A stretch of DNA of 64,000 nucleotides from an uncultured candidate division Zixibacteria bacterium (GTDB lineage: Bacteria > Zixibacteria > MSB-5A5 > GN15 > FEB-12): NCBI GenBank assembly GCA_963735035.1, contig CAVTJJ010000004.1, forward strand, positions 544,001 through 608,000, in the 5' to 3' direction. Positions within the stretch are counted from its first letter, which is position 1; each line of letters starts with the position of its first letter. Under the pieces are notes generated by a model. It was not told where the DNA came from. It did no database searches and was given only the letters and a program-made list of their open reading frames with translations. Positions 2,655 through 24,926 of this stretch are shown here, piece after piece. The position numbers and the translations under genes were made by a program.

Positions 2655-3454
2655 CCGAAGCGATACTCGACAGTCGCACCGACAACTACCGGGTCAACAT
2701 TGATGTCTTCAGCGGTCCGCTCGACTTGCTGCTTCACCTGATCAAGGTCGAAGAGGTTGACATCTACGAAATCCCGATCGCCAAGATCACCAGCCAGTAT
2801 CTCCGCTACATGGATTTGATGCAGAATCTGGACCTGGAAGTGGCCGGCGAGTTCATCCTGATGGCAGCCACGTTGATCCGGATTAAGACACGCCTGCTTC
2901 TGCCCCAGGATGAAAACGATCCGGACGAACCCGATCCGCGCGAAGAACTGATCATGGCGTTGATCGAGTACAAGAAGTACAAAGAAGCCGGCGAGATTCT
3001 GGGTGATCGGGCACGGATCGAAGAGCATTATGTCATACCGCCGTCGCCGCTGGGACAGATCGAAGGAGTGGTAGATCTTCAGCCGATGACTTCGCTCTAC
3101 GATCTGATCATGGCGTACAAAGATGTCACCAAAGTGCGGCCGGTCAAAGATGTTCACGAAGTTATTGCGCAGCGGGTGACGATTGAAGAGCGGATGCAGT
3201 GGGTGGTGCAGATGATTCGTCAGCGGGAGTCGGCGACATTTATCGAATTGTTCGCTGACACTCCGCACAAGATAGTCGCCGTGGTGACGTTCGTAGCGCT
3301 TCTGGAACTGGCACGGACGCATCGAATCAAGATTTGTCAGGCGCTGCCGTTTACCGAAGTACGTGTGTACCCCGGTGAGGCGATCAACGCGCCGTTGAGA
3401 GATATAGACCTAATTGACTATGCCAATAACGATCAACAGGGTGTGACGATATGA
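2651..3454 (+). CDS. scpA: Segregation/condensation protein A
   Basis: FSGPLDLLLHLI, EFILMAATLIRIK, VVTFVALLEL; ATGA overlap with trpS. Confidence 0.93.
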   Translation: MTEAILDSRTDNYRVNIDVFSGPLDLLLHLIKVEEVDIYEIPIAKITSQYLRYMDLMQNLDLEVAGEFILMAATLIRIKTRLLLPQDENDPDEPDPREELIMALIEYKKYKEAGEILGDRARIEEHYVIPPSPLGQIEGVVDLQPMTSLYDLIMAYKDVTKVRPVKDVHEVIAQRVTIEERMQWVVQMIRQRESATFIELFADTPHKIVAVVTFVALLELARTHRIKICQALPFTEVRVYPGEAINAPLRDIDLIDYANNDQQGVTI

Positions 3455-4266
3455 CCGAAGAACAATATCTGACTTCGAAAGTAGAAGCGCTCGTCCTGGC
3501 GTCGCCGGAACCGCTGCCGACCAAGCGCATTGTCGGCGTACTCAACGATCTGACCCCGTCGCAGGTGGCCCGTTCCATCGCGGCGCTGAATACCGCCTAT
3601 GCTACCAGCGGGTCGAGTTTCCGCATTCGCGAACTGGCCGGCGGCTATCAGTACTACATTATGCCGGAATATGAAGGTGTGGTCGAGAGTCTGTTCACCC
3701 GGCGTAGGCAGCTTCGATTGACCCGCGCAGCGCTTGAGACGGCCGCGATTATCGCGTATCGTCAACCTACTACCAAGGTCGATATCGAGCATATCCGCGG
3801 CGTCGCGTCCGATGGCGTCATCCGCACCCTGCTCGAAAAGAATCTGATCCGTATGACCGGCCGCGCCGACACAGTCGGCAAGCCGCTTCAATACGGCACC
3901 ACCGATGAGTTTCTGAAGTTCTTCGGCCTCGCGCGTCTCGAAGATCTCCCCAAGATGTCGGAGATCGAAGAGATGATCCAGGCGGAAGAGCCGCGCCGTC
4001 AGACCGAACTCGAACTGCCGCTTGATCCCGATGAGCAGCCGATCAAATTGAATGTGGCCGATGGCACGTTCGATCCGGAAAGACGCGAGCGGCTGGAAGA
4101 TGGCCTCGGCGAGGAATTTGACGAAGGCGATCCGGATGTTCTGGACAGCGCGGCCCGCTTAGTTTTGAAACGTGGCACTGAGAATATAGAATCACCGGAC
4201 GACGAAATTCTCGAAGACGAAGAGGTCGAGATTTCCGAGCAGCCTGCCGTGGCGGGCGACAACTGA
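3451..4266 (+). CDS. scpB: SMC-Scp complex subunit ScpB with acidic C-terminal tail
   Basis: LTRAALETAAIIAYRQP, IRGV, YGTTDEFLKFFGL..L..LP; ATGA overlap with scpA. Confidence 0.95.
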   Translation: MTEEQYLTSKVEALVLASPEPLPTKRIVGVLNDLTPSQVARSIAALNTAYATSGSSFRIRELAGGYQYYIMPEYEGVVESLFTRRRQLRLTRAALETAAIIAYRQPTTKVDIEHIRGVASDGVIRTLLEKNLIRMTGRADTVGKPLQYGTTDEFLKFFGLARLEDLPKMSEIEEMIQAEEPRRQTELELPLDPDEQPIKLNVADGTFDPERRERLEDGLGEEFDEGDPDVLDSAARLVLKRGTENIESPDDEILEDEEVEISEQPAVAGDN

Positions 4267-7868: not shown

Positions 7869-9137
7869 GTGAAGAAATATGTTATCGGAATTGTCATAGT
7901 GCTCGTGATCCTGGGCGGGTACCTGGGCGTCAACGCCATCTTTACGAAATCAATCGACATTCCGTCGGTGGTTGTGACATCTGGTCCATTGAATATCACC
8001 CAACAGGCGGCCGGGACCGTGGATGCAGCACGAGCCTACACTATTTCGTCGCCGCGCATTCGAAGCTTGCAGATCACCTGGCTCGCCCCCGAAGGATCCC
8101 AGGCGAAGGTCGGCGACACAGTCATTAAGTTCGACGCCAGTCAGCAGGTGGCCGAGCTGACCGACCATGAATCAACTCTCAAAATCAGCCAAACCTCACT
8201 CGATCGCGCCAAACAGGAGTACGCGCTGCAGAAGAAGAATCTGGAATTGGAGCTTCAGAAAGCGGAGCGCGTATATGACGAGCAGAAGCACGAGGCCCCG
8301 CGATTGGCCGAAGAAGCCCGCCTGGAACTTGACTTGGCGAAGCTCAACTATGAGGGGAAACTCGATCAGCTCACGGCCGATGTGCAAAAGGCCGAGCTCG
8401 AAGTTCAGCGCGCGCGCGACCAAGTGAATGTGGCCCAGAAAGAACTCGAACAGATGACCATTGTAGCGCCGATTCCCGGCATGGTGGTCTACCTGGAAAT
8501 CTGGAAGGGGAACCAGATGTCAAAAGTCCAGGAAGGTGATTCCCCCTGGCCGGGACAAGGGTTGGTCAATTTGCCCGACCTGAACGAGATGATTGTCAAG
8601 GCGGTCGTGTCCGAAGTTGACGCCGCGCGGGTCGATTCCGGCCAGCAGGTCATCGTGACGCTCGATGCCAGCCCTGACAAGAAGTACAAAGGGGAAGTCC
8701 GCAAGAAGAGCACCCTGGCGCGCAAGAAGGACCCCGGCTCCAAGATCAATGTGTTCGATATCGAAATCGCCATTCTCGATAAAGACGATCATCTCAAGCC
8801 GGGGATGTCGGCGTCCTGTCAGGTAATCATGGATCAATTGCCGGATGTGATAAAAGTACCGCTCGAAGCCGTGTTCGAGAAGGAAGGCCGCACGGTGGTG
8901 TATCTCGACAACAAGAAGGAAGTCGAAGTCAAGGTCGGCCGTCGCAACGACATGGAAATTGAGGTCACCGAGGGACTGAAAGGGGGCGAGAAGATTTGTC
9001 TGGTCGACCCGACCCTTCAGGACCTGACCATGCCCGGTGACAAGGCTACCGAACCTGAATTGAATCAGGGGCGGCGTCAACCGCAGGGTGGATCGGGTGG
9101 CGGAGAGCGGCCCGCGGGCGGGCGTCGCGGACATTAG
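7869..9137 (+). CDS. Periplasmic adaptor (MacA/HlyD-like membrane fusion protein)
   Basis: N-terminal TM, EGSQAKVGD lipoyl half, coiled coil, IVAPIPGMV, LKPGMS, VKVG. Confidence 0.88.
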   Translation: MKKYVIGIVIVLVILGGYLGVNAIFTKSIDIPSVVVTSGPLNITQQAAGTVDAARAYTISSPRIRSLQITWLAPEGSQAKVGDTVIKFDASQQVAELTDHESTLKISQTSLDRAKQEYALQKKNLELELQKAERVYDEQKHEAPRLAEEARLELDLAKLNYEGKLDQLTADVQKAELEVQRARDQVNVAQKELEQMTIVAPIPGMVVYLEIWKGNQMSKVQEGDSPWPGQGLVNLPDLNEMIVKAVVSEVDAARVDSGQQVIVTLDASPDKKYKGEVRKKSTLARKKDPGSKINVFDIEIAILDKDDHLKPGMSASCQVIMDQLPDVIKVPLEAVFEKEGRTVVYLDNKKEVEVKVGRRNDMEIEVTEGLKGGEKICLVDPTLQDLTMPGDKATEPELNQGRRQPQGGSGGGERPAGGRRGH

Positions 9138-9148
9138 GTGATTGATTA

Positions 9149-10450
9149 ATGGATTACCGCCATATCCTTCGCATCGCTTCGGACTCGCTCGCCGCGCACA
9201 AACTGCGGACGGCGCTCACCATGCTTGGCGTCATCATGGGTGTGGCCGCAGTGGTGTCCATGCTTTCAATCGGTGAAGGAGCGAAGCAGGAAGCGCTCGA
9301 GCAGATTTCCATTCTCGGCATCAATAACATAATCATTAACGCCCGTATTCCCGAAGAGACCCCCGGAGTGGTGCAGGCGTTGGGGCGGTCACCGGGTCTG
9401 TGTCTGGATGACGGCGCCAATATCGCACAGTTTACGAACCTGGTGTCCAGTGTGGTGCCGCAACGCTTCGAGCCTATCCCGTCGATTTCGTGCGGCGGTA
9501 GCGAGGCTTCAGTGCGGGTGGTAGCCACGGTGCCGTCGTTCGTTAAGTCGTCGTCGATCGACGTAGAACGCGGACGATTCATCACTGATAGAGACAATGA
9601 CGATTTCTCGCAGGTCTGTGTACTCGGCGCCAAAGCCAAGCGCGAACTGTTCGCGTTTGACAATCCAATCGGCCGCTCGGTCAGAATCGGTGATATGGAT
9701 TTCATTGTGATCGGTGTCATGGCCGACAAGTACATCGGGCGGGGCAAAGTCGAAGGACTCGAGCTCAAGAATTTCAACGAGGATGTGTATATCCCGTTTC
9801 AGACGGCGGTCAAGAAATTCGACCGGGCGAGTGGAGGATCAGAAACCAACTTCTGGGGCGGCGGCGTCACAATTAACACGGTGATGCAGGCATACAACAC
9901 GCCGGAGATAGATCAGTTGACGATTACGGTTCCGGACCTTTCCAAAGTACCGGCGGTGTCGAAGTTAGTTGAGCAGGTCATGGCCAGACGGCACTCGGGA
10001 ATTCAAGATTATGAAATAGTCGTGCCGGAATCGCTTCTGCGTCAGTCGCAAAAGACGCAACAGATCTTCAATATCGTCATGGGCGCCATCGCGGGGCTGT
10101 CGCTGCTCGTGGGGGGTATCGGGATCATGAACATCATGCTCGCGACCGTCCTTGAGAGAACGCGCGAGATCGGTGTCCGGCGAGCGGTCGGCGCCTGCCA
10201 GGGAGACATTCTCCGCCAGTTTCTGTTCGAAGCGGTTGTGATTTGTCTGTTTGGCTGTGCGATAGGTCTGGCGGTCGGCTACATCATCTCTCGGGCGATC
10301 GCATTCTATGCTGGATGGACCACGATCGTGTCGCTCTTCTCGATTGTGCTGGCGGTGGGTGTCTCCACGGCGGTCGGAATCATATTCGGTATCTATCCGG
10401 CGCGCAAGGCGGCTCGGCTCGATGTCATCGAGTCGCTCAGGTATGAGTAA
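9149..10450 (+). CDS. MacB/FtsX-like ABC transporter permease
   Basis: KLRTALTMLGVIMGV, SLLVGGIGIMNIML..V.ERTREIGVRRAVGA, YPARKAARLD. Confidence 0.92.
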   Translation: MDYRHILRIASDSLAAHKLRTALTMLGVIMGVAAVVSMLSIGEGAKQEALEQISILGINNIIINARIPEETPGVVQALGRSPGLCLDDGANIAQFTNLVSSVVPQRFEPIPSISCGGSEASVRVVATVPSFVKSSSIDVERGRFITDRDNDDFSQVCVLGAKAKRELFAFDNPIGRSVRIGDMDFIVIGVMADKYIGRGKVEGLELKNFNEDVYIPFQTAVKKFDRASGGSETNFWGGGVTINTVMQAYNTPEIDQLTITVPDLSKVPAVSKLVEQVMARRHSGIQDYEIVVPESLLRQSQKTQQIFNIVMGAIAGLSLLVGGIGIMNIMLATVLERTREIGVRRAVGACQGDILRQFLFEAVVICLFGCAIGLAVGYIISRAIAFYAGWTTIVSLFSIVLAVGVSTAVGIIFGIYPARKAARLDVIESLRYE

Positions 10451-10475
10451 CAAATCATCTGGACAGAGGTAGATC

Positions 10476-11954
10476 ATGCGAAAGTTCGGGTTGCGTATCG
10501 GTTATCGCACATTCATAATTGCCCTTCTGCTGATGGCCACATCTGTATGGGCCCGTGATCTGACTTTGGATCAGGCGCTTGAAATCGCCCTAAATCGTAC
10601 GATGCGAGGGGAAATGATCGAGGGCAATCTGGACGTCGCGCAGCAGTTGTACTCCGCCCGACGGATCAACATGTATTTGCCCGAGATTTCCATCAACGGT
10701 TCGCTGCCCAGTCTGCGTAAGTCCGAGGCTTATGAAGAACTTCGTCTGGGCGAGTTCGGCTGGTCCAACCGCCGGTACTACGATTACACGACGTTTGTGG
10801 AGCTTCAGCAGACACTTATCACCGGTGGCACATTGACCGCGACCGCAGATCTAGCCTCGGAAAATCGTCGGCTCCCGTTTACGTCCCGCAAATCCGGAGT
10901 GTCCGATCTGCAGGATCAGTTCAGTAAGAGCGGCTCTCTTCGATTGAGTCTCGCGCAGCCGTTGTTCCGGCCTTCCTCGGTGAAGAACGAGCTTCACAAT
11001 CGCCAGGATGATCTTGAGATTGCGCGTGTCACGCGGGTCGAGGAAACCGCGAAACTCAAGCGGGAAGTGACCGAAGCGTATCTTGGCACGCTGCAGCTTG
11101 CCTTGAAAGACGACATTGCCTCGCGCAAGCTCGATCAGGCGTCGCTGCAGGAAGGGATCGACTCGGCCAAACTGAGCGATGGGGTTTTGTCGGAAGAGGA
11201 TTATCTGCTGTCGACATCGGCGCGTCTGGACGCCGAATTGGCTGGGCACACCGCCGAGACCGATCTGGGAGAGAAGAAGCGAGAATTGGCGACTCTGCTC
11301 GATGTCGATGCCACCGAAGCGCTCGACTTGCTCATGCCCGAGATTCCCACACATGTGGACAGCGCTACGCGCGCAACATTGATTGCCAATTGGGAGCAGA
11401 CCGCGCCCATTCGCAAGGCGAGTCACACGCTCGACAAAGCGAAGAGAGAGGCCGATTACGCTGCGGCCGGTCACGGCCTGACCGGCGATCTGGCGGCGTC
11501 ATATTCTTTCGGCCAGCAGGATGTGCGGGTCGAAAACATTGATACGGCCACCATCAATAATTACCGCACCAACAACTGGACCGTGGCCTTGCAGTTGAAA
11601 TTGCCACTTTGGGACGGCGGTGCTGGAAGCGCGGCAGTACGAGCCGCGAGGTATCAGGCCGAGCAGGCCAATTACGAGTTTACCCGCGCCCAGCGCTCCG
11701 CCCGAGCCAAAATCATCAATTTGCTTAACCAGCTCGACGTCTCCTATCAGCGCCTCGATATCATAAAGAAACAGATCGGCCTGGCCGAGGAACGCCTCGA
11801 GATCGCCAATCAGCGCTTCGCCGACGGCCGTATTTCAAGGTTGACCCTGCTTAACAGCGAGGTTTTCTTGCTGGAGACTAAAGACCGCTACCTGGAAGAA
11901 TTGAAAAAGTACCTGGTGAATCGAATCGATCTCGACAGCCAGTATCTTATCTGA
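10476..11954 (+). CDS. TolC family outer membrane efflux protein
   Basis: Signal peptide, LTLDQALEIAL, YLPEIS, LSLAQPLF, LPLWDGG, RFADGRIS; operon with adaptor and permease. Confidence 0.85.
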   Translation: MRKFGLRIGYRTFIIALLLMATSVWARDLTLDQALEIALNRTMRGEMIEGNLDVAQQLYSARRINMYLPEISINGSLPSLRKSEAYEELRLGEFGWSNRRYYDYTTFVELQQTLITGGTLTATADLASENRRLPFTSRKSGVSDLQDQFSKSGSLRLSLAQPLFRPSSVKNELHNRQDDLEIARVTRVEETAKLKREVTEAYLGTLQLALKDDIASRKLDQASLQEGIDSAKLSDGVLSEEDYLLSTSARLDAELAGHTAETDLGEKKRELATLLDVDATEALDLLMPEIPTHVDSATRATLIANWEQTAPIRKASHTLDKAKREADYAAAGHGLTGDLAASYSFGQQDVRVENIDTATINNYRTNNWTVALQLKLPLWDGGAGSAAVRAARYQAEQANYEFTRAQRSARAKIINLLNQLDVSYQRLDIIKKQIGLAEERLEIANQRFADGRISRLTLLNSEVFLLETKDRYLEELKKYLVNRIDLDSQYLI

Positions 11955-13214: not shown

Positions 13215-14102
13215 ATGAACAGGGAACTCGCCACAAAAGAAAAGACCACCGTCGCGTTGTCCTCGGTTGTCGCCGCGATCTTTTTGACCGGGTCGAAGAC
13301 CGTCATCGGTCTCTTGACCGGCAGTCTTGGTATCCTGGCCGAGGCGCTTCACTCCGGTTTGGACCTGCTGGCGGCGGTCATTACCTACTTCTCTGTTCGC
13401 ATTTCCGACCGACCGGCCGATCGAGACCATCATTTCGGCCACGGTAAAGTCGAGAACCTCTCCGCCCTATTTGAGACTGTTCTACTACTGGTCACCTGCA
13501 TTTGGATCATATACGAGGCAGTGCACCGCTTGACGACCGGGAAGGTAGAAATCGAAGTCACATACTGGAGTTATATCGTCGTAATCGCTTCCATTCTAAT
13601 AGATTTCACTCGGTCGCGGGCGCTCATGAAGGCCGCTAAGAAGCACAATTCCCAGGCGTTGGAAGCCGACGCGCTTCATTTCTCGACTGATATCTGGAGC
13701 TCGGCGGTCGTGCTGCTCGGCCTGGTCTGCGCCCAAATTGGCTGGCATTCGGCCGACTCCTTCGCGGCCCTGGTGGTGGCGGCGATTGTCATATATGTCT
13801 GCTACAACCTGGGCAAACGCGCCGTCTCGGTGTTGCTCGACCGGGCGCCTGATGGTTCGCTGGAGACAATCTACGAGACCGCCGCCAAGATGCCGGAAAT
13901 TTTCGCCGTGCATGACATACGAATTCGCAATTCGGGGGCGGATGTGTTCGTCGATATGTCAATTCACGTGGACAGCCGGCTGACAATTGCCCAGGCGCAC
14001 GATATTTCGGATCGGCTGGAACTTGAATTGCAGCGGAAGATAGCCCGCTGTCAGGTTCACGTTCATCAGGAACCTCAGGAAGATTCGGAAGCGGACAGCT
14101 GA
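13215..14102 (+). CDS. Cation diffusion facilitator (FieF-like) transporter
   Basis: AEALHSGLD, PAD.DHHFGHGKVE, ADALHFSTD, C-terminal dimerisation domain with HQEP. Confidence 0.92.
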   Translation: MNRELATKEKTTVALSSVVAAIFLTGSKTVIGLLTGSLGILAEALHSGLDLLAAVITYFSVRISDRPADRDHHFGHGKVENLSALFETVLLLVTCIWIIYEAVHRLTTGKVEIEVTYWSYIVVIASILIDFTRSRALMKAAKKHNSQALEADALHFSTDIWSSAVVLLGLVCAQIGWHSADSFAALVVAAIVIYVCYNLGKRAVSVLLDRAPDGSLETIYETAAKMPEIFAVHDIRIRNSGADVFVDMSIHVDSRLTIAQAHDISDRLELELQRKIARCQVHVHQEPQEDSEADS

Positions 14103-14159
14103 GCGGGCCTCCGCTCTCTGGTTCCCTTTTCTTGTTCGGATATCCTCTTCTGTACTTCA

Positions 14160-14462
14160 CTCAACGGGTGGGATTTGGAGCGCGGCGTCCAGCCCCGTCA
14201 TGCCCGACTTGGTCGGGCAACCATGGCCACTCGCACTTGCAGAATGTGAAGCGCCAACTTGAGGGTCAGACGCGGGACGAGACTTCTTGAGCATCCGATC
14301 AATCTTTCACAAGACATTAGTCTCTATCGGTCATCAACTCGCTCGATTGTTATGTACCATTGTCCAGCGCGACAGCCCATGGACCCCCGACGCCTCGGGG
14401 GTGACGGCCTTTCGGCCGTCTATACACGTTTCGGTACCCCACCAACGGGTGGGGATTATTCG
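14160..14462. repeat. ~270-300 bp composite palindromic repeat
   Basis: Collinear homology with ~5382-5647 (GTCATGCCCGAC hairpin ... CCCCCGACG hairpin, GACGGCC hairpin, CCCACC hairpin). Confidence 0.82.
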
Positions 14463-14503
14463 ACGTGTAACCTGCCGCGTTTCATCAACGCGACATTCGC
14501 AAG

Positions 14504-14551
14504 TCACTCCCCAAATGCAAACTGCCAGTACGCCAGCGCGGCGATCACGAT
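14504..14551 (-). pseudogene. Orphan duplicate of the last 15 codons plus stop of the 14670-14894 gene
   Basis: Minus strand reads IVIAALAYWQFAFGE*, identical to the gene's C-terminus but with 7 synonymous codon differences. Confidence 0.75.
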
Positions 14552-14669
14552 TTGAACTCATCAATACGAGCCGGCAGATGTGGGCATCTGCCGGGCACTT
14601 GGCGACATTCGAGATCGCTATCGCTCGCCCGCGAAGCACGGACGAGGCACGTGATAACGGATGCGGATA

Positions 14670-14894
14670 TCACTCCCCGAACGCAAACTGCCAGTAAGCC
14701 AATGCAGCGATTACGATCGAGAACGCCACCCCAGCAATAAACCCAGCCCGGAAATTGTCGTACCGACCAAGAAACGATTTCTTCTTTTCGGCGCGGCTAA
14801 CCAGATCGGCGTGACAGTGCTTGCAGCGGATTGCGCCCGCCGCTATGGGTTCCTTACAAAAAGGACAACGCGTGGTTTCTTTCGCCAGAGACAT
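14670..14894 (-). CDS. Small zinc-ribbon membrane protein
   Basis: CPFCKEPI...A..CKHC plus one C-terminal TM helix. Confidence 0.8.
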   Translation of the reverse strand: MSLAKETTRCPFCKEPIAAGAIRCKHCHADLVSRAEKKKSFLGRYDNFRAGFIAGVAFSIVIAALAYWQFAFGE

Positions 14895-14941
14895 GGTTTA
14901 AGATTGCTCAGGGACAGTGTGCGAATCAACCACAAAACAAA

Positions 14942-15019
14942 GCGTCAGGTCACACCTCGCCCGACTCCGTCAGCCTCGGCAAGACCCCCGATCTGGTCGG
15001 GGGAAAGCTCTGACGCAAC
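14942..15019. repeat. GCGTCAGGTCACACCTC-family palindromic repeat
   Basis: Related copies at 33185-33238 (inverse), 38220-38283, 38467-38509. Confidence 0.8.
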
Positions 15020-15138
15020 AGTATTGGGGAGCAGATGGGCGGTAAGGCAGGGACGCCTGACCGCACGCTTGACAGGTCGCCTGACCGCACGCCCGGCTGG
15101 TGCGGTAGTCGCCGTACTCGGTCCACATTCGAATCATG

Positions 15139-15167
15139 TTGACAAGTGGTCTGTGCGGGAATATTTT
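15139..15167 (+). promoter_or_regulatory. Putative sigma70 promoter, precursor copy 1
   Basis: TTGACA-17 nt-TATTTT; both boxes identical in copy 2 while the spacer diverges. Confidence 0.7.
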
Positions 15168-15358
15168 GGTTGTGAGACAGGGCCAGTGTTCACCAGGTAT
15201 CCGCTCAGAAATTCTCCCACTGGACTCATTTGAAATATTGATCTTTTTCACGCGGCCGGAGCGTTTTGTGTCCGACACCGAATTTGACACTCGACATTGC
15301 AAAAATTATGGGCGTGTATTCGCCCTTACCACTTCACAATATGAAAGGAGAATTTGAA

Positions 15359-15454
15359 GTGAAACTAATCCAACTGCCGGGTTTGGAGTCACATCCGAAA
15401 CCGCCGCTCTGTATCGCCAAGGGTCCGCTGTATATCATCTGCGGGCACTACTAG
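15359..15454 (+). CDS. Putative RiPP precursor peptide A1 (31 aa, MKLIQLPGLESHPKPPLCIAKGPLYIICGHY)
   Basis: AAGGAG RBS 8 nt before GTG; paralogous to 15852-15944; upstream of two rSAM/SPASM genes. Confidence 0.85.
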   Translation: MKLIQLPGLESHPKPPLCIAKGPLYIICGHY

Positions 15455-15475
15455 GATTCATAGTTGAATCACAGT

Positions 15476-15506
15476 CAAGCGCCGGCGGCCTCACGGCCGG
15501 CGCTTG
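15476..15506 (+). terminator. Strong hairpin after precursor A1 (terminator or mRNA-stabilising stem)
   Basis: CAAGCGCCGGC-9 nt-GCCGGCGCTTG perfect 11-bp stem; only weak U-tract. Confidence 0.6.
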
Positions 15507-15633
15507 GCCACTTCGTTTCGACTCACCCACAGACATAAGCTCAGTCGCACGATTACCCCAACCGCTAAAGCACACGGGTACACTCCCTTTTCTAGGAATT
15601 CAAGTTGACTGTGTCACAGTTGATCGAATCAGG

Positions 15634-15662
15634 TTGACAAGCCGCGTGACCGAGAATATTTT
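15634..15662 (+). promoter_or_regulatory. Putative sigma70 promoter, precursor copy 2
   Basis: TTGACA-17 nt-TATTTT, same as copy 1. Confidence 0.7.
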
Positions 15663-15851
15663 GTCTCTAAGACAGGGTCAGTGCGCACCGGGTATCCGCA
15701 TTTATTTTCTTCCACTTGACTCAATTCGAATGAACTTGTTCGCACGGCCGGAGCGTTTTGTGTCCGACACCGAATTTGGCACTCGTTATTGCAGCAATAA
15801 TGGGCGTAAGTGCGCCCATTCTATGAAACCTCACACAATAGGAGACGTCAC

Positions 15852-15944
15852 ATGAAGTTGATCCAACTCCCCGGTATGGAGCCGGTCGAACAGAAGCCCT
15901 GCCCGTCCAAAGGCATTTGGTACATCATCTGTTCAATTCATTAA
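15852..15944 (+). CDS. Putative RiPP precursor peptide A2 (30 aa, MKLIQLPGMEPVEQKPCPSKGIWYIICSIH)
   Basis: AGGAG RBS 7 nt before ATG; below the ORF-track size cut-off; shares MKLIQLPG.E and CxxKGxxYIIC with A1. Confidence 0.87.
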   Translation: MKLIQLPGMEPVEQKPCPSKGIWYIICSIH

Positions 15945-15960
15945 TTGATAGTGTGGTAGA

Positions 15961-15990
15961 GAACATGCGTCGGTTGCCCGGCGCATGTTC
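15961..15990 (+). terminator. Hairpin between precursor A2 and the first rSAM gene
   Basis: GAACATGCGTCGG-TTGC-CCGGCGCATGTTC stem (one G-U pair); no strong U-tract, so read-through is plausible. Confidence 0.6.
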
Positions 15991-16042
15991 CTTAACATCC
16001 AGGCCCCTCAGGTTTCACCCGTAGTATCTCCTGGCATTAGAC

Positions 16043-17383
16043 ATGAAAGCTTCCCCGTATAATCATTTCTTTGAGTTGCTCGACGGCCGAGTTGTCCTCG
16101 CTTACAACAGCTTGTCTGGGAAGGTGGCCGAAATCGAGCCGGAACATTACGCGGCCGTACGAGACCTTCTGAACGACCCGGGACAGTCACGCGACGCAAA
16201 GTCCGAAGAGTTCTATCAGTGTCTGTGCGATGGCGGGTTTCTGATTCCCGACGGCGTCGATCAGCACGCCGCCCTTAGAGTAAACGCTCGGTCCGCGCGA
16301 CTTCAAGGGTCGGCCCTCACCCTGACTATTGCCCCGACCCTGGCCTGTAATTTTGCGTGCGATTACTGCTTCGAAGCGCGTTCCAACATTCTCATGTCGA
16401 AGGATACCCAGGCGGCCCTGTTGTCGTTCGTCGATCAACAACTGTATCGGTTCTCCGGCCTGCGGATCTGCTGGTTCGGCGGGGAACCGACTCTCTGCCT
16501 TCCGGTAATCGAACGGTTGCAACATCAGCTTCGAGCCCTTGCGGAAAAGCACCATGCCAGCCTGCTTCCGGCCATGATCATTACCAACGGCTACCTGATG
16601 GATGCAACCATGGCAACGCGGCTGCGTGAACTCGGTGTGAGACAGGCCCAGATCACGCTCGATGGGCCCGAGGCCGTGCACGACCGTCGACGCAAACTGC
16701 GCAATGGCAAGGGTACGTTCAGCAGAATTATCGAGAACCTTCGCGAAACGGTCGACATTCTGCGGATCAATTTGAGAATCAACATCGACAGGGACAATGT
16801 CGATACGGCCTGCGAAGTGGCCGAGATCCTCCGGCAAAACGGAATACTGGGCAAAGTGAAGGTCAACTTCGCTCAGATCACGGCATCCGACACGGTCTGC
16901 TCGGATGTCAGGGAAAGATGCCAGGACAGTCGCGAGTTCGCCGGAATCCTGGAGAAGATCTACCGCACGTTTCACGAGTCGGGAGTTCACGAAATAAATC
17001 ACCCTCAAGTATCGCCCGAGGGTACCTGTGGGGCCGTATCTGAGGGGTATTACGTGGTATCACCCAACGGTTTCCTGTTCAAATGCTGGGAGGACTTGTC
17101 GGTGACCGGCGACAAATCGATCGGTACCGTCTTTACGCCGGAGCTGAACGAACAGCAGAAGACGAATCTGGAGAGCTACCGGGCATGGCAACCACTTAAA
17201 CTCGAGGGGTGTCAGGCCTGCAAAGTCTTGCCGGTCTGCATGGGCGGCTGTCCGGCCCGCGGCCGCGAGTTGATCAACCCCACCCACGGCGCCTGTACAA
17301 CTTGGAAATATAACCTGAAAGAAATGCTGGAACTGGCTTACATCGCAGCTAACCGTCCGTCCGAGCCACACGGGAATTCATGA
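16043..17383 (+). CDS. Radical SAM/SPASM peptide maturase with probable N-terminal RRE
   Basis: CNFACDYC, WFGGEPTL, ITNGYL, QITLDG...HD.RR; SPASM C..(NG...KC)..CQAC..LP.CMGGCP..C; ~90-aa N-terminal extension (YNHFF..LAYNSLSG..GGFLIP). Confidence 0.92.
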   Translation: MKASPYNHFFELLDGRVVLAYNSLSGKVAEIEPEHYAAVRDLLNDPGQSRDAKSEEFYQCLCDGGFLIPDGVDQHAALRVNARSARLQGSALTLTIAPTLACNFACDYCFEARSNILMSKDTQAALLSFVDQQLYRFSGLRICWFGGEPTLCLPVIERLQHQLRALAEKHHASLLPAMIITNGYLMDATMATRLRELGVRQAQITLDGPEAVHDRRRKLRNGKGTFSRIIENLRETVDILRINLRINIDRDNVDTACEVAEILRQNGILGKVKVNFAQITASDTVCSDVRERCQDSREFAGILEKIYRTFHESGVHEINHPQVSPEGTCGAVSEGYYVVSPNGFLFKCWEDLSVTGDKSIGTVFTPELNEQQKTNLESYRAWQPLKLEGCQACKVLPVCMGGCPARGRELINPTHGACTTWKYNLKEMLELAYIAANRPSEPHGNS

Positions 17384-18414
17384 CTGTGAACACCGCGCCT
17401 ACTACCCCTGAACGAAAGTTTGAAGTCATCGGCTGGGAAATCACCGGTCAGTGCAATTTGAAGTGTGCCCATTGTTTCACGGCCGCCGCGACCCGTCCCC
17501 ATGATGAACTCAGCACGACCGAGTGTCGCCGGGTGATAGACTCACTCCACACACTCGGTGTTGAAATGATCGGCTGGACCGGCGGCGAACCGCTCCTGCG
17601 AGCCGACCTTGAAGAGCTCAGCGCCTACGCCTGGGAAAAGGGGATGCGCAGCACGATTACGTCCAACGGCGTTCTCATGTCCGAGGAGCGTGCCGCGAAT
17701 TTAATCGCAGCCGGTAATCGCACAATTCAGATCAGCCTGGACGGTTCTACGGCTGCCAGGAACCACTTGATGCGCGGCACTACCGACGCCGAGTACGACG
17801 CCGTTGTGAAGGCAATTCGCGTATGTAAGAAGGCGGGCGCCCGCGTGGTGATGGCATCGTTGGTGGGGCGTGAAAATCTCGATGATGTCGCCGCCCTTCT
17901 CGATTTCGCAAAGCGCGAGGGGGTGGATACGATTCGGTTTTGCGGCTTCACTCCGGTTGGTCGGGGCAAACACCAGAAGGTGCAGGATCGGCTCCTCATC
18001 TCGGATCGAATGAAAGAATTGCTCGAATTTATCAGGCAGGCTCAGGAAGAGGTTTCACTTCTGACCGAGTTCGACGTCGGTTTTGGTCCAGTCCCACCGG
18101 TATTTGATTTCCACAAATGTGTCGCCGGGGTCAAGACCTGTTACATCAAAGGGAATGGCGACGTTTATCCCTGTACCGCTCTGTGTGTGCCACAATTCCT
18201 AATCGGGAATGTGCGGGAACGATCGTTGGAAGAATTGTGGGAGATGCCCATGATGAGAGCGGCGTCGGAATATCCGCACGAACAAATTACCGGCCCGTGT
18301 CGGACGTGCGACAATTTTGCCGCCTGTCACGGGGCCTGTCGCGGGGCTACTCTGGCGATGACGGGCGACATCAACGCTTCGTTTCCGCACTGTCTGTATC
18401 GAGCGGCTCTCTGA
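17380..18414 (+). CDS. Second radical SAM/SPASM protein (PqqE/NirJ/AhbD-like architecture, no N-terminal extension)
   Basis: WEITGQCNLKCAHC, TGGEPLLR, QISLDG; SPASM CVAG..NGDVYPC..GNVRE..CRTC..C.GACR..C; ATGA overlap with upstream rSAM. Confidence 0.92.
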   Translation: MTVNTAPTTPERKFEVIGWEITGQCNLKCAHCFTAAATRPHDELSTTECRRVIDSLHTLGVEMIGWTGGEPLLRADLEELSAYAWEKGMRSTITSNGVLMSEERAANLIAAGNRTIQISLDGSTAARNHLMRGTTDAEYDAVVKAIRVCKKAGARVVMASLVGRENLDDVAALLDFAKREGVDTIRFCGFTPVGRGKHQKVQDRLLISDRMKELLEFIRQAQEEVSLLTEFDVGFGPVPPVFDFHKCVAGVKTCYIKGNGDVYPCTALCVPQFLIGNVRERSLEELWEMPMMRAASEYPHEQITGPCRTCDNFAACHGACRGATLAMTGDINASFPHCLYRAAL

Positions 18415-18440
18415 CATCTCAATCTACATAACACAAAGAG

Positions 18441-18720
18441 AACGTCAGGCCCGGGGGCCGTATCGTTTGATCGGCAGGGTTCTAACCCTGCCGTTTTTTC
18501 GGCGGGCCGGGAGGCCTGCCGATCACAGGATGAGGCTGTCTTACCCGAAAAAGAAACGGCAGGCCCGGAGGCCAAATCGTTGATCGGCAGGGTTCCAACC
18601 CTGCCGTTTTTTCGGCAGGCCCGGAGGCCTGCCGATCACGGAATGAGGCTGTCTTACCCGAAAAAGAAACGGCAGGCCGGGAGGCCAAATCGTTTGATCG
18701 GCAGGGTTCCAACCCTGCCG
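18441..18720. repeat. BIME-like tandem array, ~113-114 bp period, ~2.5 units
   Basis: GATCGGCAGGGTT..AACCCTGCCG starts at 18469, 18582, 18696, alternating with CGGCAGGCC..GGCCTGCCGATC; linkers near-identical. Confidence 0.9.
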
Positions 18721-18764
18721 ATTATGTTTGCTGAGATTTGTCGATCAACAATTGAAATCAGTGA

Positions 18765-20501
18765 TCAGACCGGGAACTCGACCTTGGCGAACCATTCCAA
18801 CTCAAGCTCGGGGAAGAGCGAGTCGCGCTGGGAGCAATCGCGAAAATACTGCCACTCGCCTTCGGTGCCGGTTTCTCCGGCTATCAACTTATCCGCCAGG
18901 GCGGCCATCCTCTTGAAGTCTTCGTAATGTTCGGTCAGTCGTAATTCCGCATAATCACGAGCGGCGAAAGTCGAAATCAGGAACTGCCAGTCGGACGCCG
19001 AGAGAACCATCAGCTCGCGGGCGGCCTGTTTCAGGACGTTGGTCAGGTTGTCCGTGCGTTGATCCTTATGGTCGAGCCAGAACCGGGCCAGCTCGCACAT
19101 CTTCGCTTCCGCTTCATAGATGTGCACCCAGGTCCATTCCGTGTGCTGATTGAGCCAGATGAAGTGATGATTCCCCTGGCCCCAGCTTCCTTCGGGGATG
19201 GACACAACTTGCGTCGGCTTGCGGCGGTCCAGATCCTCGGATAGGAAGGTCAGCCCGATATTCTTCGATTCACATACGTCTTTGAGAACCTTCTTGAGGA
19301 AGAGCGGTCCTTCAAACCACCAATGGCCGAACAGTTCGGCGTCATACGGTGCAACCAGAATTCCGGCGCGATCGCTTTCCTTGTTGTAAGCGCACAGGAT
19401 TTCTTCAGCCTTAGCGGCGAAATGGTCGGCGTTTTCATCGAGCCGTCCGAGTGCCCCATTGTAGTTATATTCGACCTTGTCGGCCAGGTCGGACTTTGCG
19501 GATGTGACCGCCCAGTACCGCAGGCCGCCGGGGAAACGCTTCTTGTGAAAGTCCAGATAGTGGCCGTCGCCGGGGTAGCCGTGTTCGCCAGACCAGACCA
19601 GGAGCCCGGTCTCAGGATCACGGGAGAAGATCGCGGTCGGCGCCTTGCCTTCGGTATTCGAAGCGGCGATATAGACCTCGCGTGGGGTCTTGTCGAATTC
19701 TTCCTCACGCGGTAGATACTGCTTTTCGAATTGTGACCAGAGCAACTTAAGGGCGTCGAAACGGTCGACATAAACACCGACCGACTTTCCACCCTTCAGC
19801 AGCGCCGAATCTATGATGAAGAAATCGAGACCGTTCTCGGAGAGAAATTCTTCGCACCCCTTGCGGTGATAGGCGGCCTTGCTGCCATGGATAGGTACAG
19901 GGGGCGCCCAATCATAGCGCGGTCGATAGGCGCATTCGGGGAGCCAGATGCCGCGCGGTTGGCGACCGAAATGCTTCCGGTAATTCTTCACCGCGGCTTT
20001 GGTCTGGGCCTGAAGTGATTCATCGCGGGAAAGCAGCGGATAGTAGCCGTGGGTGGCGCCGCAGGTGATGATTTCCAGGTAGCCGTCGTCCTGGAGTTTC
20101 CGGAATTCGTAAAGGATATCCTGCCCCAGCTCGTTGAATTGCTCCAGGGTACGGGAAAAGAACGTTTCCCACATGTGGGAGTTTTCCAGCATGTTGTTCT
20201 GGCCGTACTTGAAGAATTCCTCGCTGTCGTGCTTTGCCGCCTTGATCTTTTGATTCAAGTAAGAGACAAATTCGGTCTTGAAATCGGCGTCCGACAGCTG
20301 CTCGCACAAGACCGGCGAAAGGCCCATCGTCAGTTTCGGACGGTACCCTTCGGCGATGAGTTCGTGCATGATGCGGAGAAGAGGAAGATAGGTCTCGGCC
20401 GCCGCCTCGCAGAGCCAATCCGTGCCGTGCGGCCAGCGTCCGTGCGAAAGGACGTACGGCAGATGTGAGTGGAGGACGACGCTGAGATATCCTTTTTTCA
20501 T
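18765..20501 (-). CDS. GH57 family glycoside hydrolase / 1,4-alpha-glucan branching enzyme (DUF1957)
   Basis: VLHSHLPYV, ETYLPLL, GIWLPECAY, PYDAELFGHWWFEG, SDWQF. Confidence 0.92.
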   Translation of the reverse strand: MKKGYLSVVLHSHLPYVLSHGRWPHGTDWLCEAAAETYLPLLRIMHELIAEGYRPKLTMGLSPVLCEQLSDADFKTEFVSYLNQKIKAAKHDSEEFFKYGQNNMLENSHMWETFFSRTLEQFNELGQDILYEFRKLQDDGYLEIITCGATHGYYPLLSRDESLQAQTKAAVKNYRKHFGRQPRGIWLPECAYRPRYDWAPPVPIHGSKAAYHRKGCEEFLSENGLDFFIIDSALLKGGKSVGVYVDRFDALKLLWSQFEKQYLPREEEFDKTPREVYIAASNTEGKAPTAIFSRDPETGLLVWSGEHGYPGDGHYLDFHKKRFPGGLRYWAVTSAKSDLADKVEYNYNGALGRLDENADHFAAKAEEILCAYNKESDRAGILVAPYDAELFGHWWFEGPLFLKKVLKDVCESKNIGLTFLSEDLDRRKPTQVVSIPEGSWGQGNHHFIWLNQHTEWTWVHIYEAEAKMCELARFWLDHKDQRTDNLTNVLKQAARELMVLSASDWQFLISTFAARDYAELRLTEHYEDFKRMAALADKLIAGETGTEGEWQYFRDCSQRDSLFPELELEWFAKVEFPV

Positions 20502-22946: not shown

Positions 22947-23018
22947 TGTTCGGGTCGGATTGACCGGAAACCACGAACGGGCACCGATTCGTAATACGTT
23001 GTGAAAGGAAATACAGGA

Positions 23019-24926
23019 ATGAACTTCATCGCCCGACATCTCAAGAAACTCCGCACGCTGGTTGCGGCCATTACGCTATGTCTTATCGCCGCCGGTTTGA
23101 TTGCGGCTCCGACCAGTTTGGTCCGGGATTCGATTCCGGACAAGTACAAGTGGGACCTAAGTCCTATCTACGCCGACTGGAACGCCTGGGAAAAAGATTG
23201 TGCAAAAGTCTCGGCTATGATCGACACCCTGGCTAGCATGAAGGGACAGGCATCTCAAGGGGCTGAGTCGCTCCTGAGAGTGCTTCAGTGCGACGACCGG
23301 GTCGGAGAACTGGTCAATCGTGTTTCTCTCTACGCCGACCTGAGCTATGTCACGAATCAGGTGGACAACGACCTGAACGCCAAGACCCAGCGGGCAGCCC
23401 TTCTTACCGTGCGCCGGTCCGACGCTACGACCTGGTTGCAGCCGGAACTGCTCCAGCTCCAATGGGAAACGGTCAAGGGGTGGATCGATCAGACTCCCGG
23501 GCTGGCTATCTACCGATACACTCTCGATAATCTGTTCCGTCTCAAACCGCACACCCTCGATGAGAACGGCGAGAAGCTCCTGTCGTACTTCAGCACTTTC
23601 GACAACACTCCCGACGCGATCTACTCCGGTTTCATTTACTCCGACATTCAATACAATGACTATGTCTCGAAGACCGGCGACACGATTAAGCTGACCGAGT
23701 CACAGATCTGGTATCAGATCCAGACCAACCGGGACCAGGAAGAACGCCGCAAGATGTTTACTACGTTCTACGGGGCCTACAATGATTACGTCAACACTTA
23801 TGCGTCGATGTACAACAGCGTGCTGCAGCGTGATTGGGCGCTGGCGCGGGCCCGCAACTATCCGACTGCGCTTGAGGCGACGCTTAGCGCCAACGATGTC
23901 CCCCCGATCGTGTACGAGAATCAGGTGAGCACTGTCCGCGCCGGAGTTGCTCCTCTGCAGCGGTATCATCGGTTGCGCAAGCAGGCGCTCGGACTGGAGC
24001 ATTACTACTGGTCCGATCGGCAGATTCCGCTGGTCGCAAAGGAAAGCACGTATGAGTACGACTCGATCGTGCCGTGGGTGATGGAATCTTTGAAGCCGTT
24101 GGGCGAAGACTATGCCCTGAAGTTGAAGGACCTGTTCGGAAACCGTCGCATCGACGTCTACGAAAACAGCGACAAGTACACCGGCGGCTTCCAGTCGGAT
24201 ACTTACGGTACACCGCAGTTCATCCTGTTGAATTTCAACGGGACCCTGGGGGAAGTGTTTACGGTGGCGCACGAAGCCGGTCACGCCCTCCACTCCAACT
24301 ATTCCAACGCCAGTCAGCCGTACGTCAATTCCAGCTACACGATCTTCGTTGCCGAAGTCGCGTCCACGTTGAACGAAGCGCTATTTCTGGACTACCTGAT
24401 GCAGAAGGCGAAGACTTCGGATGAGCGGATTGCGATGCTCCAACGGGCGATCGAGGGGATCGAGCAGACGTTCTATCTGCAGACCATGTTTGCCGACTTC
24501 GAGTGGCAGGCCCACAAGCTGGTGGAAGCGGGCGAGCCGGTAACGGCCGACGCGCTTCGCGCCATCTGTGGCAAGCTGACAGCCGATTACTACGGTGATG
24601 CGATCGAGATGGACACGATTCTGCAATCGTACTGGACCCGTATCGGCCATTTCTTCAGCACCCCCTATTACGTATATAAGTATGCCACGAGCTACGCCGC
24701 GTCGGCGCAGATCGTACAGGGGATCCAGTCGAAGAAGTCCGCCGATCGCAAGAAGGCTCTGGAAAACTATCAAGGCCTGCTCAAATCGGGTGGCAGCGAC
24801 TATCCAATGGAACAACTTCGCAAGTGCGGAGTAGACCTGGCCAAACCGGACGCCATCCAGGCCGTGGTCAAAAGGCTCGACAACCTGGTGACGCTACTCG
24901 AAGCGGAGCTCGCAAAACGCAAGTGA
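23019..24926 (+). CDS. pepF: Oligoendopeptidase F (M3B) with N-terminal signal peptide
   Basis: KYKWDLSPIY, TVAHEAGHALHS, IFVAEVASTLNE, YYVYKYATS, GGSDYP; start may be GTG 23001. Confidence 0.9.
   Translation: MNFIARHLKKLRTLVAAITLCLIAAGLIAAPTSLVRDSIPDKYKWDLSPIYADWNAWEKDCAKVSAMIDTLASMKGQASQGAESLLRVLQCDDRVGELVNRVSLYADLSYVTNQVDNDLNAKTQRAALLTVRRSDATTWLQPELLQLQWETVKGWIDQTPGLAIYRYTLDNLFRLKPHTLDENGEKLLSYFSTFDNTPDAIYSGFIYSDIQYNDYVSKTGDTIKLTESQIWYQIQTNRDQEERRKMFTTFYGAYNDYVNTYASMYNSVLQRDWALARARNYPTALEATLSANDVPPIVYENQVSTVRAGVAPLQRYHRLRKQALGLEHYYWSDRQIPLVAKESTYEYDSIVPWVMESLKPLGEDYALKLKDLFGNRRIDVYENSDKYTGGFQSDTYGTPQFILLNFNGTLGEVFTVAHEAGHALHSNYSNASQPYVNSSYTIFVAEVASTLNEALFLDYLMQKAKTSDERIAMLQRAIEGIEQTFYLQTMFADFEWQAHKLVEAGEPVTADALRAICGKLTADYYGDAIEMDTILQSYWTRIGHFFSTPYYVYKYATSYAASAQIVQGIQSKKSADRKKALENYQGLLKSGGSDYPMEQLRKCGVDLAKPDAIQAVVKRLDNLVTLLEAELAKRK

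Follow-up and report, generated by a model that had tools for sequence, protein, structure and literature searches.

A conserved cassette of twin short peptide genes and two radical SAM enzymes in an uncultured Zixibacteria bacterium: a candidate minimal peptide-maturation system

Here, we describe a small gene cassette in a stretch of 64,000 nucleotides, referred to as the window, from an uncultured candidate division Zixibacteria bacterium (assembly GCA_963735035.1, contig CAVTJJ010000004.1, positions 544,001 to 608,000 of the forward strand; positions below are those of the window unless a locus is named). The cassette consists of two genes for short peptides, A1 and A2, and two genes for radical S-adenosylmethionine (SAM) enzymes with a SPASM domain, rSAM1 and rSAM2 (Table 1). 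Judged from sequence comparisons and structure predictions, this cassette is real, conserved and uncharacterised, and it combines peptide maturation by a radical SAM/SPASM enzyme, apparently guided by a leader and a RiPP recognition element (RRE), with a second radical SAM enzyme that lacks an RRE. We consider it likely that the cassette represents a minimal system for a peptide made on the ribosome and then modified after translation (RiPP), in which two precursor genes are served by two radical SAM/SPASM maturases in a leader-guided manner. A preliminary description, made from the letters of the window alone, had proposed a new RiPP system. That the cassette is conserved and uncharacterised agrees with this proposal; the leader of the peptides, however, has its relatives in the Clo7bot/TIGR04463 superfamily and the system is, therefore, not categorically new. 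In other words, this kinship makes the cassette a new branch of a known kind of system.

Both peptide genes have strong Shine-Dalgarno sites, with AAAGGAG 7 nt upstream of the GTG of A1 and AGGAG 6 nt upstream of the ATG of A2. A second in-frame start candidate for A1 is the ATG at 15342. Because this ATG overlaps the Shine-Dalgarno site and because all homologues begin with M-[KR]-[LI]-I, we take the GTG at 15359 to be the start of A1. The two peptides have the same Cys-x9-Cys arrangement but differ at 13 of 30 aligned positions, and A1 ends in G-H-Y and A2 in S-I-H. In a codon comparison, 17 residues are identical, and these are specified by the same codon in 6 cases and by a different codon in 11. 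All the codon pairs to which the preliminary description had drawn attention (AAA/AAG, CTA/TTG, CTG/CTC, CCG/CCC, TGT/TGC, GGT/GGC and TAT/TAC) are present, and the coordinates, ribosome-binding sites and letters of the two open reading frames (ORFs) of 30-31 residues are as it had given them. The encoding of identical residues by different codons argues for selection on the peptide and not on the DNA. Thus, as far as such comparisons can tell, A1 and A2 are real small genes under purifying selection as peptides. Within the source genome, this type of leader and core is found in A1 and A2 only.

The two enzyme genes are kept together over wide distances. Among 8,000 candidates scored, more than 1,000 relatives of rSAM1 were found at E <= 1e-20, and the named ones are mostly from metagenome-assembled genomes (MAGs) of Zixibacteria. 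A locus scan with one genome per species returned 79 loci, in 39 of which an rSAM2 orthologue (43-63% identity) lies directly downstream of rSAM1. In a tally of 285 genomes of the phylum, with thresholds of E <= 1e-90 for rSAM1 and E <= 1e-70 for rSAM2, rSAM1 is present in 42 genomes (21 of 130 genera) and rSAM2 in 47. Both are present in 41 of the 42 rSAM1-positive genomes, and in the sole genome scored as having rSAM1 only (G069), an adjacent rSAM2 is detected by tblastn. The six genomes scored as having rSAM2 only probably hold more divergent copies of rSAM1. In a tree of 97 rSAM1 relatives, a pair-bearing clade comprises 56 rows with a support of 95, and rSAM2 is adjacent in 51 of these. 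When the loci of this clade were searched with a regular expression for leader and core that also required a Shine-Dalgarno site, a leader-bearing small ORF accompanied the enzyme genes in 44 of 54 loci; among the ten misses, several have visibly related peptides outside the regular expression or lie on short contigs. No further gene is conserved beside rSAM1 and rSAM2, the next-best gene cluster being present in 8 of 36 loci. Overall, the cassette is widespread in uncultured Zixibacteria and also occurs in MAGs labelled Acidobacteriota and Ignavibacteria, although labels of this sort may be in error.

The genome from which the window derives also holds a second, distant cassette with twin radical SAM genes (L002, G000:C2:66079-70365). 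Its radical SAM genes (1492-2847 and 2844-3986) overlap by ATGA; the first product is Clo7bot-like and 34% identical to rSAM1, the second is a radical SAM/SPASM protein, and no NCBIfam cut-off is reached. Three tandem small ORFs are found at this locus (704-808, 1015-1110 and 1289-1390), with the pattern MIFLIEPN...C..KC...LYGI....

The peptides fall into two types, and we refer to those like A1 and A2 as type II and to those of more distant loci as type I. Type II peptides are encoded upstream of the closest rSAM1 orthologues. The leader and core recur at this position in 11 of the 13 loci of the type II subclade, which is more than chance would give; the two loci without them end there with their contigs. 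In the tree, the 13 type II rows are nested as a clade of their own with a support of 100 and, therefore, what the window contains is derived within a larger family. The CxxKGxxYIIC motif, by which the preliminary description had identified the peptides, is present in A1 and A2 but represents only one lineage's version of a peptide family that is much larger. Type II examples, such as MRLITLPGVTFARKPHYIICGVKGPLYIICGHY, MKLIRLPGIDPIEKPHYIICSINGPYKIICSKY and the three-repeat form ...PHPIICAVNGPYPIICRDNMYPIICSKF, point to a unit P-x-x-I-I-C-x-x-(K/N)-G that is present in two or three copies; the first repeat is degenerate in A1 and A2. When 15 type II peptides from 11 loci are aligned, the invariant residues are M1, P7, I26 and C28, and the position before I-I-C, the aromatic position, varies between Y, K, R and P. 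The small gene of type I is located between rSAM1 and rSAM2, as in MKFIESPSTAIQKPCPCYKKLFLILPPLQD or MKLIQKPQEQAQIPCPCYKKLFLILPPW, and its products end in LILPP. Hybrids of the two types also exist, for instance ...PCPCYKMFFPIICSAD.

In a joint alignment of 22 peptides of both types, which A1 and A2 fit, the invariant residues are M1, the first Cys and an Ile approximately nine residues after this Cys, with I4 and P7 nearly so; an aromatic residue stands two positions before the invariant Ile (F/Y-x-I). For peptides of the A1/A2 type, sequence comparison delimits the conserved part to the first approximately nine residues, M-K-L-I-x-L-P-G, and the cores carry a Cys that is followed nine residues later by I-I-C. 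The residue three positions after a Cys (Cys+3) is K in 9, N in 7, Y in 10, F in 2 and W, H and L in one case each of the 31 Cys in the 15 type II peptides; after the first Cys of type I, it is Y or K in most peptides. Strong Shine-Dalgarno sites precede all family peptides listed. Most loci of the family have one peptide, and one locus (L007) has three different copies. Searches of NCBIfam and Pfam with A1/A2-type peptides matched no curated peptide family, which agrees with the preliminary description, where the motif was not recognised as that of any described precursor. The N-terminus of 3 of the 22 family peptides weakly matched the Clo7bot peptide model (best E = 0.0028).

Several loci depart from these arrangements. 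L012 and L015 (G142:C109 and G143:C55) have two tandem rSAM1 paralogues ahead of one rSAM2, and up to three different peptides (PCPCYKM(F/Y)FPIIC, CTVKGVCITKFFPILPPW and CPWKCNNLFFIMP) are encoded approximately 1.5-2 kb upstream. In L020 (5576-5701), L181 and L182, a proline-rich C-terminal extension follows the peptide core (...FFPILPPEPPPPPEPPPIPCPALN). Four loci from Acidobacteria/Terriglobia (L041, 7599-7951; L043, 7609-7725; L054, 5596-7424; L055, 7386-7499, reverse strand) have an rSAM1 relative without rSAM2 together with one to four small ORFs, in which the leader MKF(I/V)VxPQ precedes a different Cys-rich core (...LCWLCSEDPRAC...). The sharing of a leader by different cores in these acidobacterial loci implies that the leader belongs to a wider superfamily, in which a single type of leader may serve more than one family of cores.

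rSAM1 has the features of a leader-binding maturase. It matches PF04055 with 57.5 bits and TIGR04085 with 51.3 bits (cut-off 27), and C102, C106 and C109 together with nine further Cys are invariant in 17 sequences. The closest solved relative is CteB, by sequence (E = 2e-11, 18% identity) and by fold (template modelling (TM) score 0.71). In an AlphaFold2 model of rSAM1 (predicted local distance difference test (pLDDT) score 85), residues 7-87 are arranged as beta-beta-beta-alpha-alpha-alpha, three strands and three helices that we take to be the layout of an RRE. An RRE is described in a published account as a leader-binding element of approximately 90 residues (PMC10288494). In complex modelling, rSAM1 with A1 scored 0.74, as compared with 0.01 for the best control, and passed a mark that is reached by 116 of 157 solved complexes and by 2 of 215 mismatched pairs; because solved complexes of an RRE and a leader exist (SuiB and ChlB), this pass may partly reflect likeness to them. 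Over the runs, contact agreement was at least 46% and the pLDDT of the partner at least 46. The confidently modelled contacts connect residues 1-9 and 11 of the peptide to residues 20-21, 26-32, 35, 39 and 56-64 in the RRE-like domain of rSAM1 and to residues 319-323 and 429-436; the first nine peptide residues (1-9) are placed against strand 26-32 and helices 35-64. Thus, the invariant N-terminus of the peptides is predicted to be the docking element on the RRE-like domain. Together, the codon pattern, the conservation of peptides with enzymes, the RRE-like domain and the leader docking model provide computational support for the earlier proposal that the small ORFs encode the substrates of the adjacent radical SAM enzymes.

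By its sequence, rSAM2 is translationally coupled to rSAM1 through the ATGA overlap. It matches PF04055 with 94.4 bits and PF13186 with 42.4 bits (cut-off 21.5), and the pair of overlapping radical SAM/SPASM genes in the preliminary description is, thus, corroborated by signatures above cut-off. In 24 sequences, C247, C265, C307, C310, C316, C320 and C338 of rSAM2 are invariant. No RRE domain was found in a model of rSAM2 (pLDDT 91). Its nearest solved relative is PqqE (E = 9e-23), which is also the top fold match.

We suggest the following model for the cassette. A1 would form a separate transcript and A2 would be read through into the enzyme genes, each being transcribed, we infer, from its own copy of a duplicated promoter and 5' leader. 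The N-terminal leader of the peptide would pair as a strand with beta-3 of the RRE fused to rSAM1 and the C-terminal core would be held in the active site. There, rSAM1 would abstract a hydrogen from an acceptor residue and link this acceptor to a Cys sulfur, forming a thioether. The likeliest targets would be the conserved C-x-x-(K/N) and C-x-x-(Y/aromatic) units, which would give rise to two small thioether rings per peptide. rSAM2 would probably work in complex with rSAM1, by analogy with TrnC/TrnD, and install a second modification, probably at the invariant aromatic-x-Ile/Ile-Ile segment.

The proposal of Cys-to-(i+3) thioethers is based on the residues at Cys+3 in the family peptides and on CrpC, which is the only characterised member of the two families nearest to rSAM1, Clo7bot and TIGR04463. 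According to a published study of this TIGR04463 protein from Methanococcus voltae, CrpC forms ranthionine thioethers in the motifs CAGM, CAVD, CAGD and CPLV, i.e. from Cys to i+3 (PMC13692751). On the sequence evidence, we regard the thioether step alone as evenly balanced. In its complete form, the model would define a new RiPP class, in which an RRE-bearing Clo7bot/CrpC-like and an RRE-less PqqE/MftC-like radical SAM enzyme act as one complex on a peptide of approximately 30 residues. Two different types of cross-link that have not yet been described in combination would thereby meet in one product, thioethers from Cys to a Lys, Asn or Tyr at i+3 and a modification at aromatic-x-Ile, and this product would do without a protease or exporter of its own. 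This complete form is a tentative proposal and, in our estimate, a doubtful one. If no dedicated protease or exporter is needed, the product might have an intracellular role or bind metal.

Several observations weigh against this model. The family models on which the assignment of the enzymes draws are not matched to their cut-offs: rSAM1 scores 307.9 bits over the full length of the Clo7bot maturase model TIGR04334 (cut-off 600), 305.5 bits on TIGR04463 (cut-off 525) and 126.9 bits on the PapB model (cut-off 340), and rSAM2 scores 181 bits on the MftC model TIGR03962 (cut-off 265). The models that follow Clo7bot and TIGR04463 for rSAM1 (CefB, FlmE/OhkG, geopeptide and PapB) are all below cut-off, as are the SCIFF maturase model for rSAM1 (73.5 bits, cut-off 425) and the PqqE model TIGR02109 for rSAM2 (133.4 bits, cut-off 381). 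In the complex model, the pLDDT of the partner is below 50 in some runs, and the leader but not the core is placed. As acceptors at i+3, Lys, Asn and Tyr would be an extension by analogy, since none of them is in the reported CrpC motifs, and in part of the type I cores the residue at Cys+3 is F, L, M or R. The residues close to the catalytic site of CteB are given as F112, F152, T186, S210, H363 and Q364 (PMC10288494). In a phmmer alignment to 5wgg_A, the corresponding residues of rSAM1 are F110, F145, I180, T205, W349 and E350, of which two (F110 and F145) are identical and two are conservative; judged from this alignment, these residues do not clearly mark rSAM1 as a thioether synthase. Finally, the neighbourhoods of 36 loci revealed no conserved gene for a protease, a transporter or a regulator.

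An alternative for the same cassette is that its class-defining chemistry is a C-C cross-link of the cyclophane type at aromatic-x-Ile, with the Cys residues serving in metal binding or in a disulfide. Next to one Cys, the aromatic residue two positions before the invariant Ile is the most conserved feature of the core in both types, rSAM1 has weak matches to the cyclophane-forming families YhhB (61.8 bits), GrrM/OscB (57.9 bits) and AmcB (53.1 bits), and its differences from CteB at four of the six proximity positions would fit this chemistry as well. However, these family scores are five times below those for Clo7bot and TIGR04463, thioethers are what CrpC (PMC13692751) and CteB, as the nearest characterised relatives, form, and in type II it is the aromatic position that varies and the Cys that is invariant. 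We regard the cyclophane-type cross-link as unlikely.

The absence of a conserved protease or exporter would also be explained if the peptides, like those for mycofactocin or PQQ, gave rise to a small molecule that stays in the cell as a cofactor or binds metal, and not to a secreted bioactive peptide. The relationship of rSAM2 to PqqE and its score on the MftC model point in this direction, as do a Tyr that is terminal or at Cys+3 near the C-terminus in 9 of the 15 type II peptides and the CDF metal-efflux gene that adjoins the cassette in 4 of 36 loci. Cofactor precursors, by contrast, are near-invariant, whereas the cores diverge within one genome, both between A1 and A2 and among the three copies of L007. 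Moreover, rSAM2 stays below the MftC cut-off, a C-terminal Val-Tyr is missing, the last residues of type I peptides are LILPP and not Tyr, and the conserved surroundings include neither a dehydrogenase gene nor another gene that would use a cofactor. Altogether, a cofactor precursor seems quite improbable to us. Still less can be said for the idea that the small ORFs arose by chance or encode regulatory leader peptides and that the enzymes act on a non-peptide substrate, for instance a tetrapyrrole as do NirJ and AhbD. NirJ2 (185.6 bits) and AhbD (180.1 bits) are among the top NCBIfam matches of rSAM2, but both scores are far below the cut-offs of 500; the peptides are kept with the enzymes over wide distances, with leader and core staying the same as their position shifts from upstream of to between the enzyme genes; and the synonymous-codon pattern and the predicted docking of the leader on the RRE-like domain of rSAM1 likewise argue for peptide substrates. 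We consider this last explanation highly improbable.

The regions in front of A1 and A2 are duplicated. Promoters 1 and 2 are consensus matches, and the region contains six sigma-70-like sites as compared with 2.3 expected. The two copies of the 5' leader are 79% identical over 187 nt, include an identical block of 33 nt and are better conserved than the peptide genes behind them. Neither the duplicated leader nor the 33-nt block has a further copy elsewhere in the source genome, and the block was not found upstream of 11 peptides from other loci with up to 9 substitutions allowed. In an Rfam search of 14000-19000 with E up to 1, the leaders had no match, and just two sub-threshold isrK-like matches were obtained, both in the downstream repeats. 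A candidate sigma-54 promoter, TGGCAC...TTGCA at approximately 15783-15799, was rejected because its two elements are one base too far apart and GG is replaced by GA in copy 1. The hairpin 3' of A1 has no clear U-tract and may be a terminator, an attenuator or a transcript stabiliser; that 3' of A2, also without a U-tract, is possibly an attenuator that allows read-through. Unlike A1 and A2, rSAM1 has no obvious Shine-Dalgarno site.

Table 1. Features of the cassette and its upstream regions in the window
Feature	Position	Strand	Description
Sigma-70-like promoter 1, 5' of A1	15139..15167	+	TTGACA-17-TATTTT; 10/12 consensus matches
5' leader of A1	15168..15358	+	~190 nt; duplicated 5' of A2
Precursor peptide A1	15359..15454	+	31 aa, GTG start; leader MKLIQLPGLE, core ...LCIAKGPLYIICGHY
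GC-rich 13-bp hairpin 3' of A1	15474..15508	+	-34.4 kcal/mol, z = -5.08, equalled by 0/200 shuffles
Sigma-70-like promoter 2, 5' of A2	15634..15662	+	TTGACA-17-TATTTT; hexamers identical to promoter 1
5' leader of A2	15663..15851	+	Second copy, duplicate of the A1 leader
Precursor peptide A2	15852..15944	+	30 aa, ATG start; leader MKLIQLPGME, core ...KPCPSKGIWYIICSIH
13-bp hairpin between A2 and rSAM1	15961..15990	+	104-nt stretch: -34.2 kcal/mol, z = -2.78
rSAM1	16043..17383	+	446 aa; RRE-like domain (~7-87), radical SAM core C102-x3-C106-x2-C109, SPASM; predicted leader-binding maturase
rSAM2	17380..18414	+	344 aa; radical SAM core C25-x3-C29-x2-C32, SPASM, no RRE; ATGA overlap with rSAM1

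Directly 3' of rSAM2, at 18435-18724, are three tandem hairpin repeats (CGGCAGGGTTCYAACCCTGCCG followed by a T-run). The repeat resembles repetitive extragenic palindromic (REP) elements and is dispersed in the genome; blastn gave more than 100 matches, which are spread over 5 of 6 contigs. Genes for HlyD/MacB-type permease/outer-membrane efflux proteins, a CDF cation-efflux protein and an M3 oligopeptidase lie within 8 kb of the cassette (7869-11954, 13215-14102 and 23001-24926). Elsewhere, the cassette is not accompanied by the HlyD/MacB/outer-membrane efflux genes or the M3 peptidase gene as conserved neighbours; the loci in which the CDF gene adjoins it are that of the window and three closely related ones. 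Divergent from A1, at 14670-14894 on the reverse strand, is a gene for a 74-residue zinc-ribbon protein with a C-terminal hydrophobic segment, which scores 24.4 against a Pfam cut-off of 27 and is not kept beside the cassette in other loci.

Peptide-modifying radical SAM enzymes rank among the main sources from which new cross-link chemistry and narrow-spectrum peptide antibiotics are obtained. The cassette described here is very small, with a peptide of approximately 30 residues and two enzymes, and is covered by no curated model, making it a good lead for genome mining. The natural variation of the core (PCPCYKKLFLILPP, HYIICxxKGPxYIICxxY and hybrids) offers a ready-made substrate series, and the leader, of which nine residues should by prediction suffice for docking, would lend itself to peptide engineering. 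In the literature, we found no publication on Clo7bot and none linking Zixibacteria to radical SAM RiPPs or ranthipeptides. The Precord 2023 dataset spreadsheet contains neither the one UniProt and three NCBI accessions of family members nor the words Zixibacteria and GN15. Searches on TIGR04334, TIGR04463 and TIGR04333 returned nothing on the present family, the titles and abstracts of the ranthipeptide, radical SAM and SPASM literature since 2023 likewise held nothing on it, and for OhkG/FlmE there was nothing relevant among the matches listed. Because many such radical SAM families still await characterisation, the cassette does not overturn current understanding.

Among known systems, Clo7bot, with the maturase TIGR04334 and the Cys-rich peptides TIGR04333, is the best family match of rSAM1, at half its cut-off. 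Clo7bot loci have one radical SAM enzyme and many tandem peptides. A leader M-K-x-I-x-x-P appears to be common to both systems, whereas the cores are unlike. In CteB, the SCIFF maturase, the order of domains is the same as in rSAM1 and the leader is bound by the fused RRE; however, the peptides of the window lack the six-Cys core of SCIFF. For rSAM2, MftC and PqqE are the nearest characterised relatives, and they also act on short peptide substrates. In contrast to these systems, the cassette has no separate MftB or PqqD protein and no Val-Tyr or Glu...Tyr motif, and rSAM2 is paired with a second maturase. Such a pairing is found in thuricin CD, where two radical SAM enzymes are encoded with two precursors, TrnA and TrnB, as in the window. 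TrnC and TrnD are reported to form a complex and to act jointly (PMC12093266), which provides a working model for the ATGA-coupled pair. Differently from thuricin CD, most loci of the family have one peptide, so that the product would not be two-component as a rule, and rSAM2 lacks an RRE. CrpC is, like rSAM1, a maturase composed of RRE, radical SAM and SPASM domains. Its substrate CrpA is a large Cys-rich protein with a leader-like N-terminus of 47 residues (PMC13692751), as compared with a peptide of 30 residues and a leader of approximately nine here; moreover, the cassette has a second radical SAM enzyme and the acceptor residues would differ. Nevertheless, the motifs modified by CrpC and the C-x-x-(K/N/Y) units of the window share the same i to i+3 spacing.

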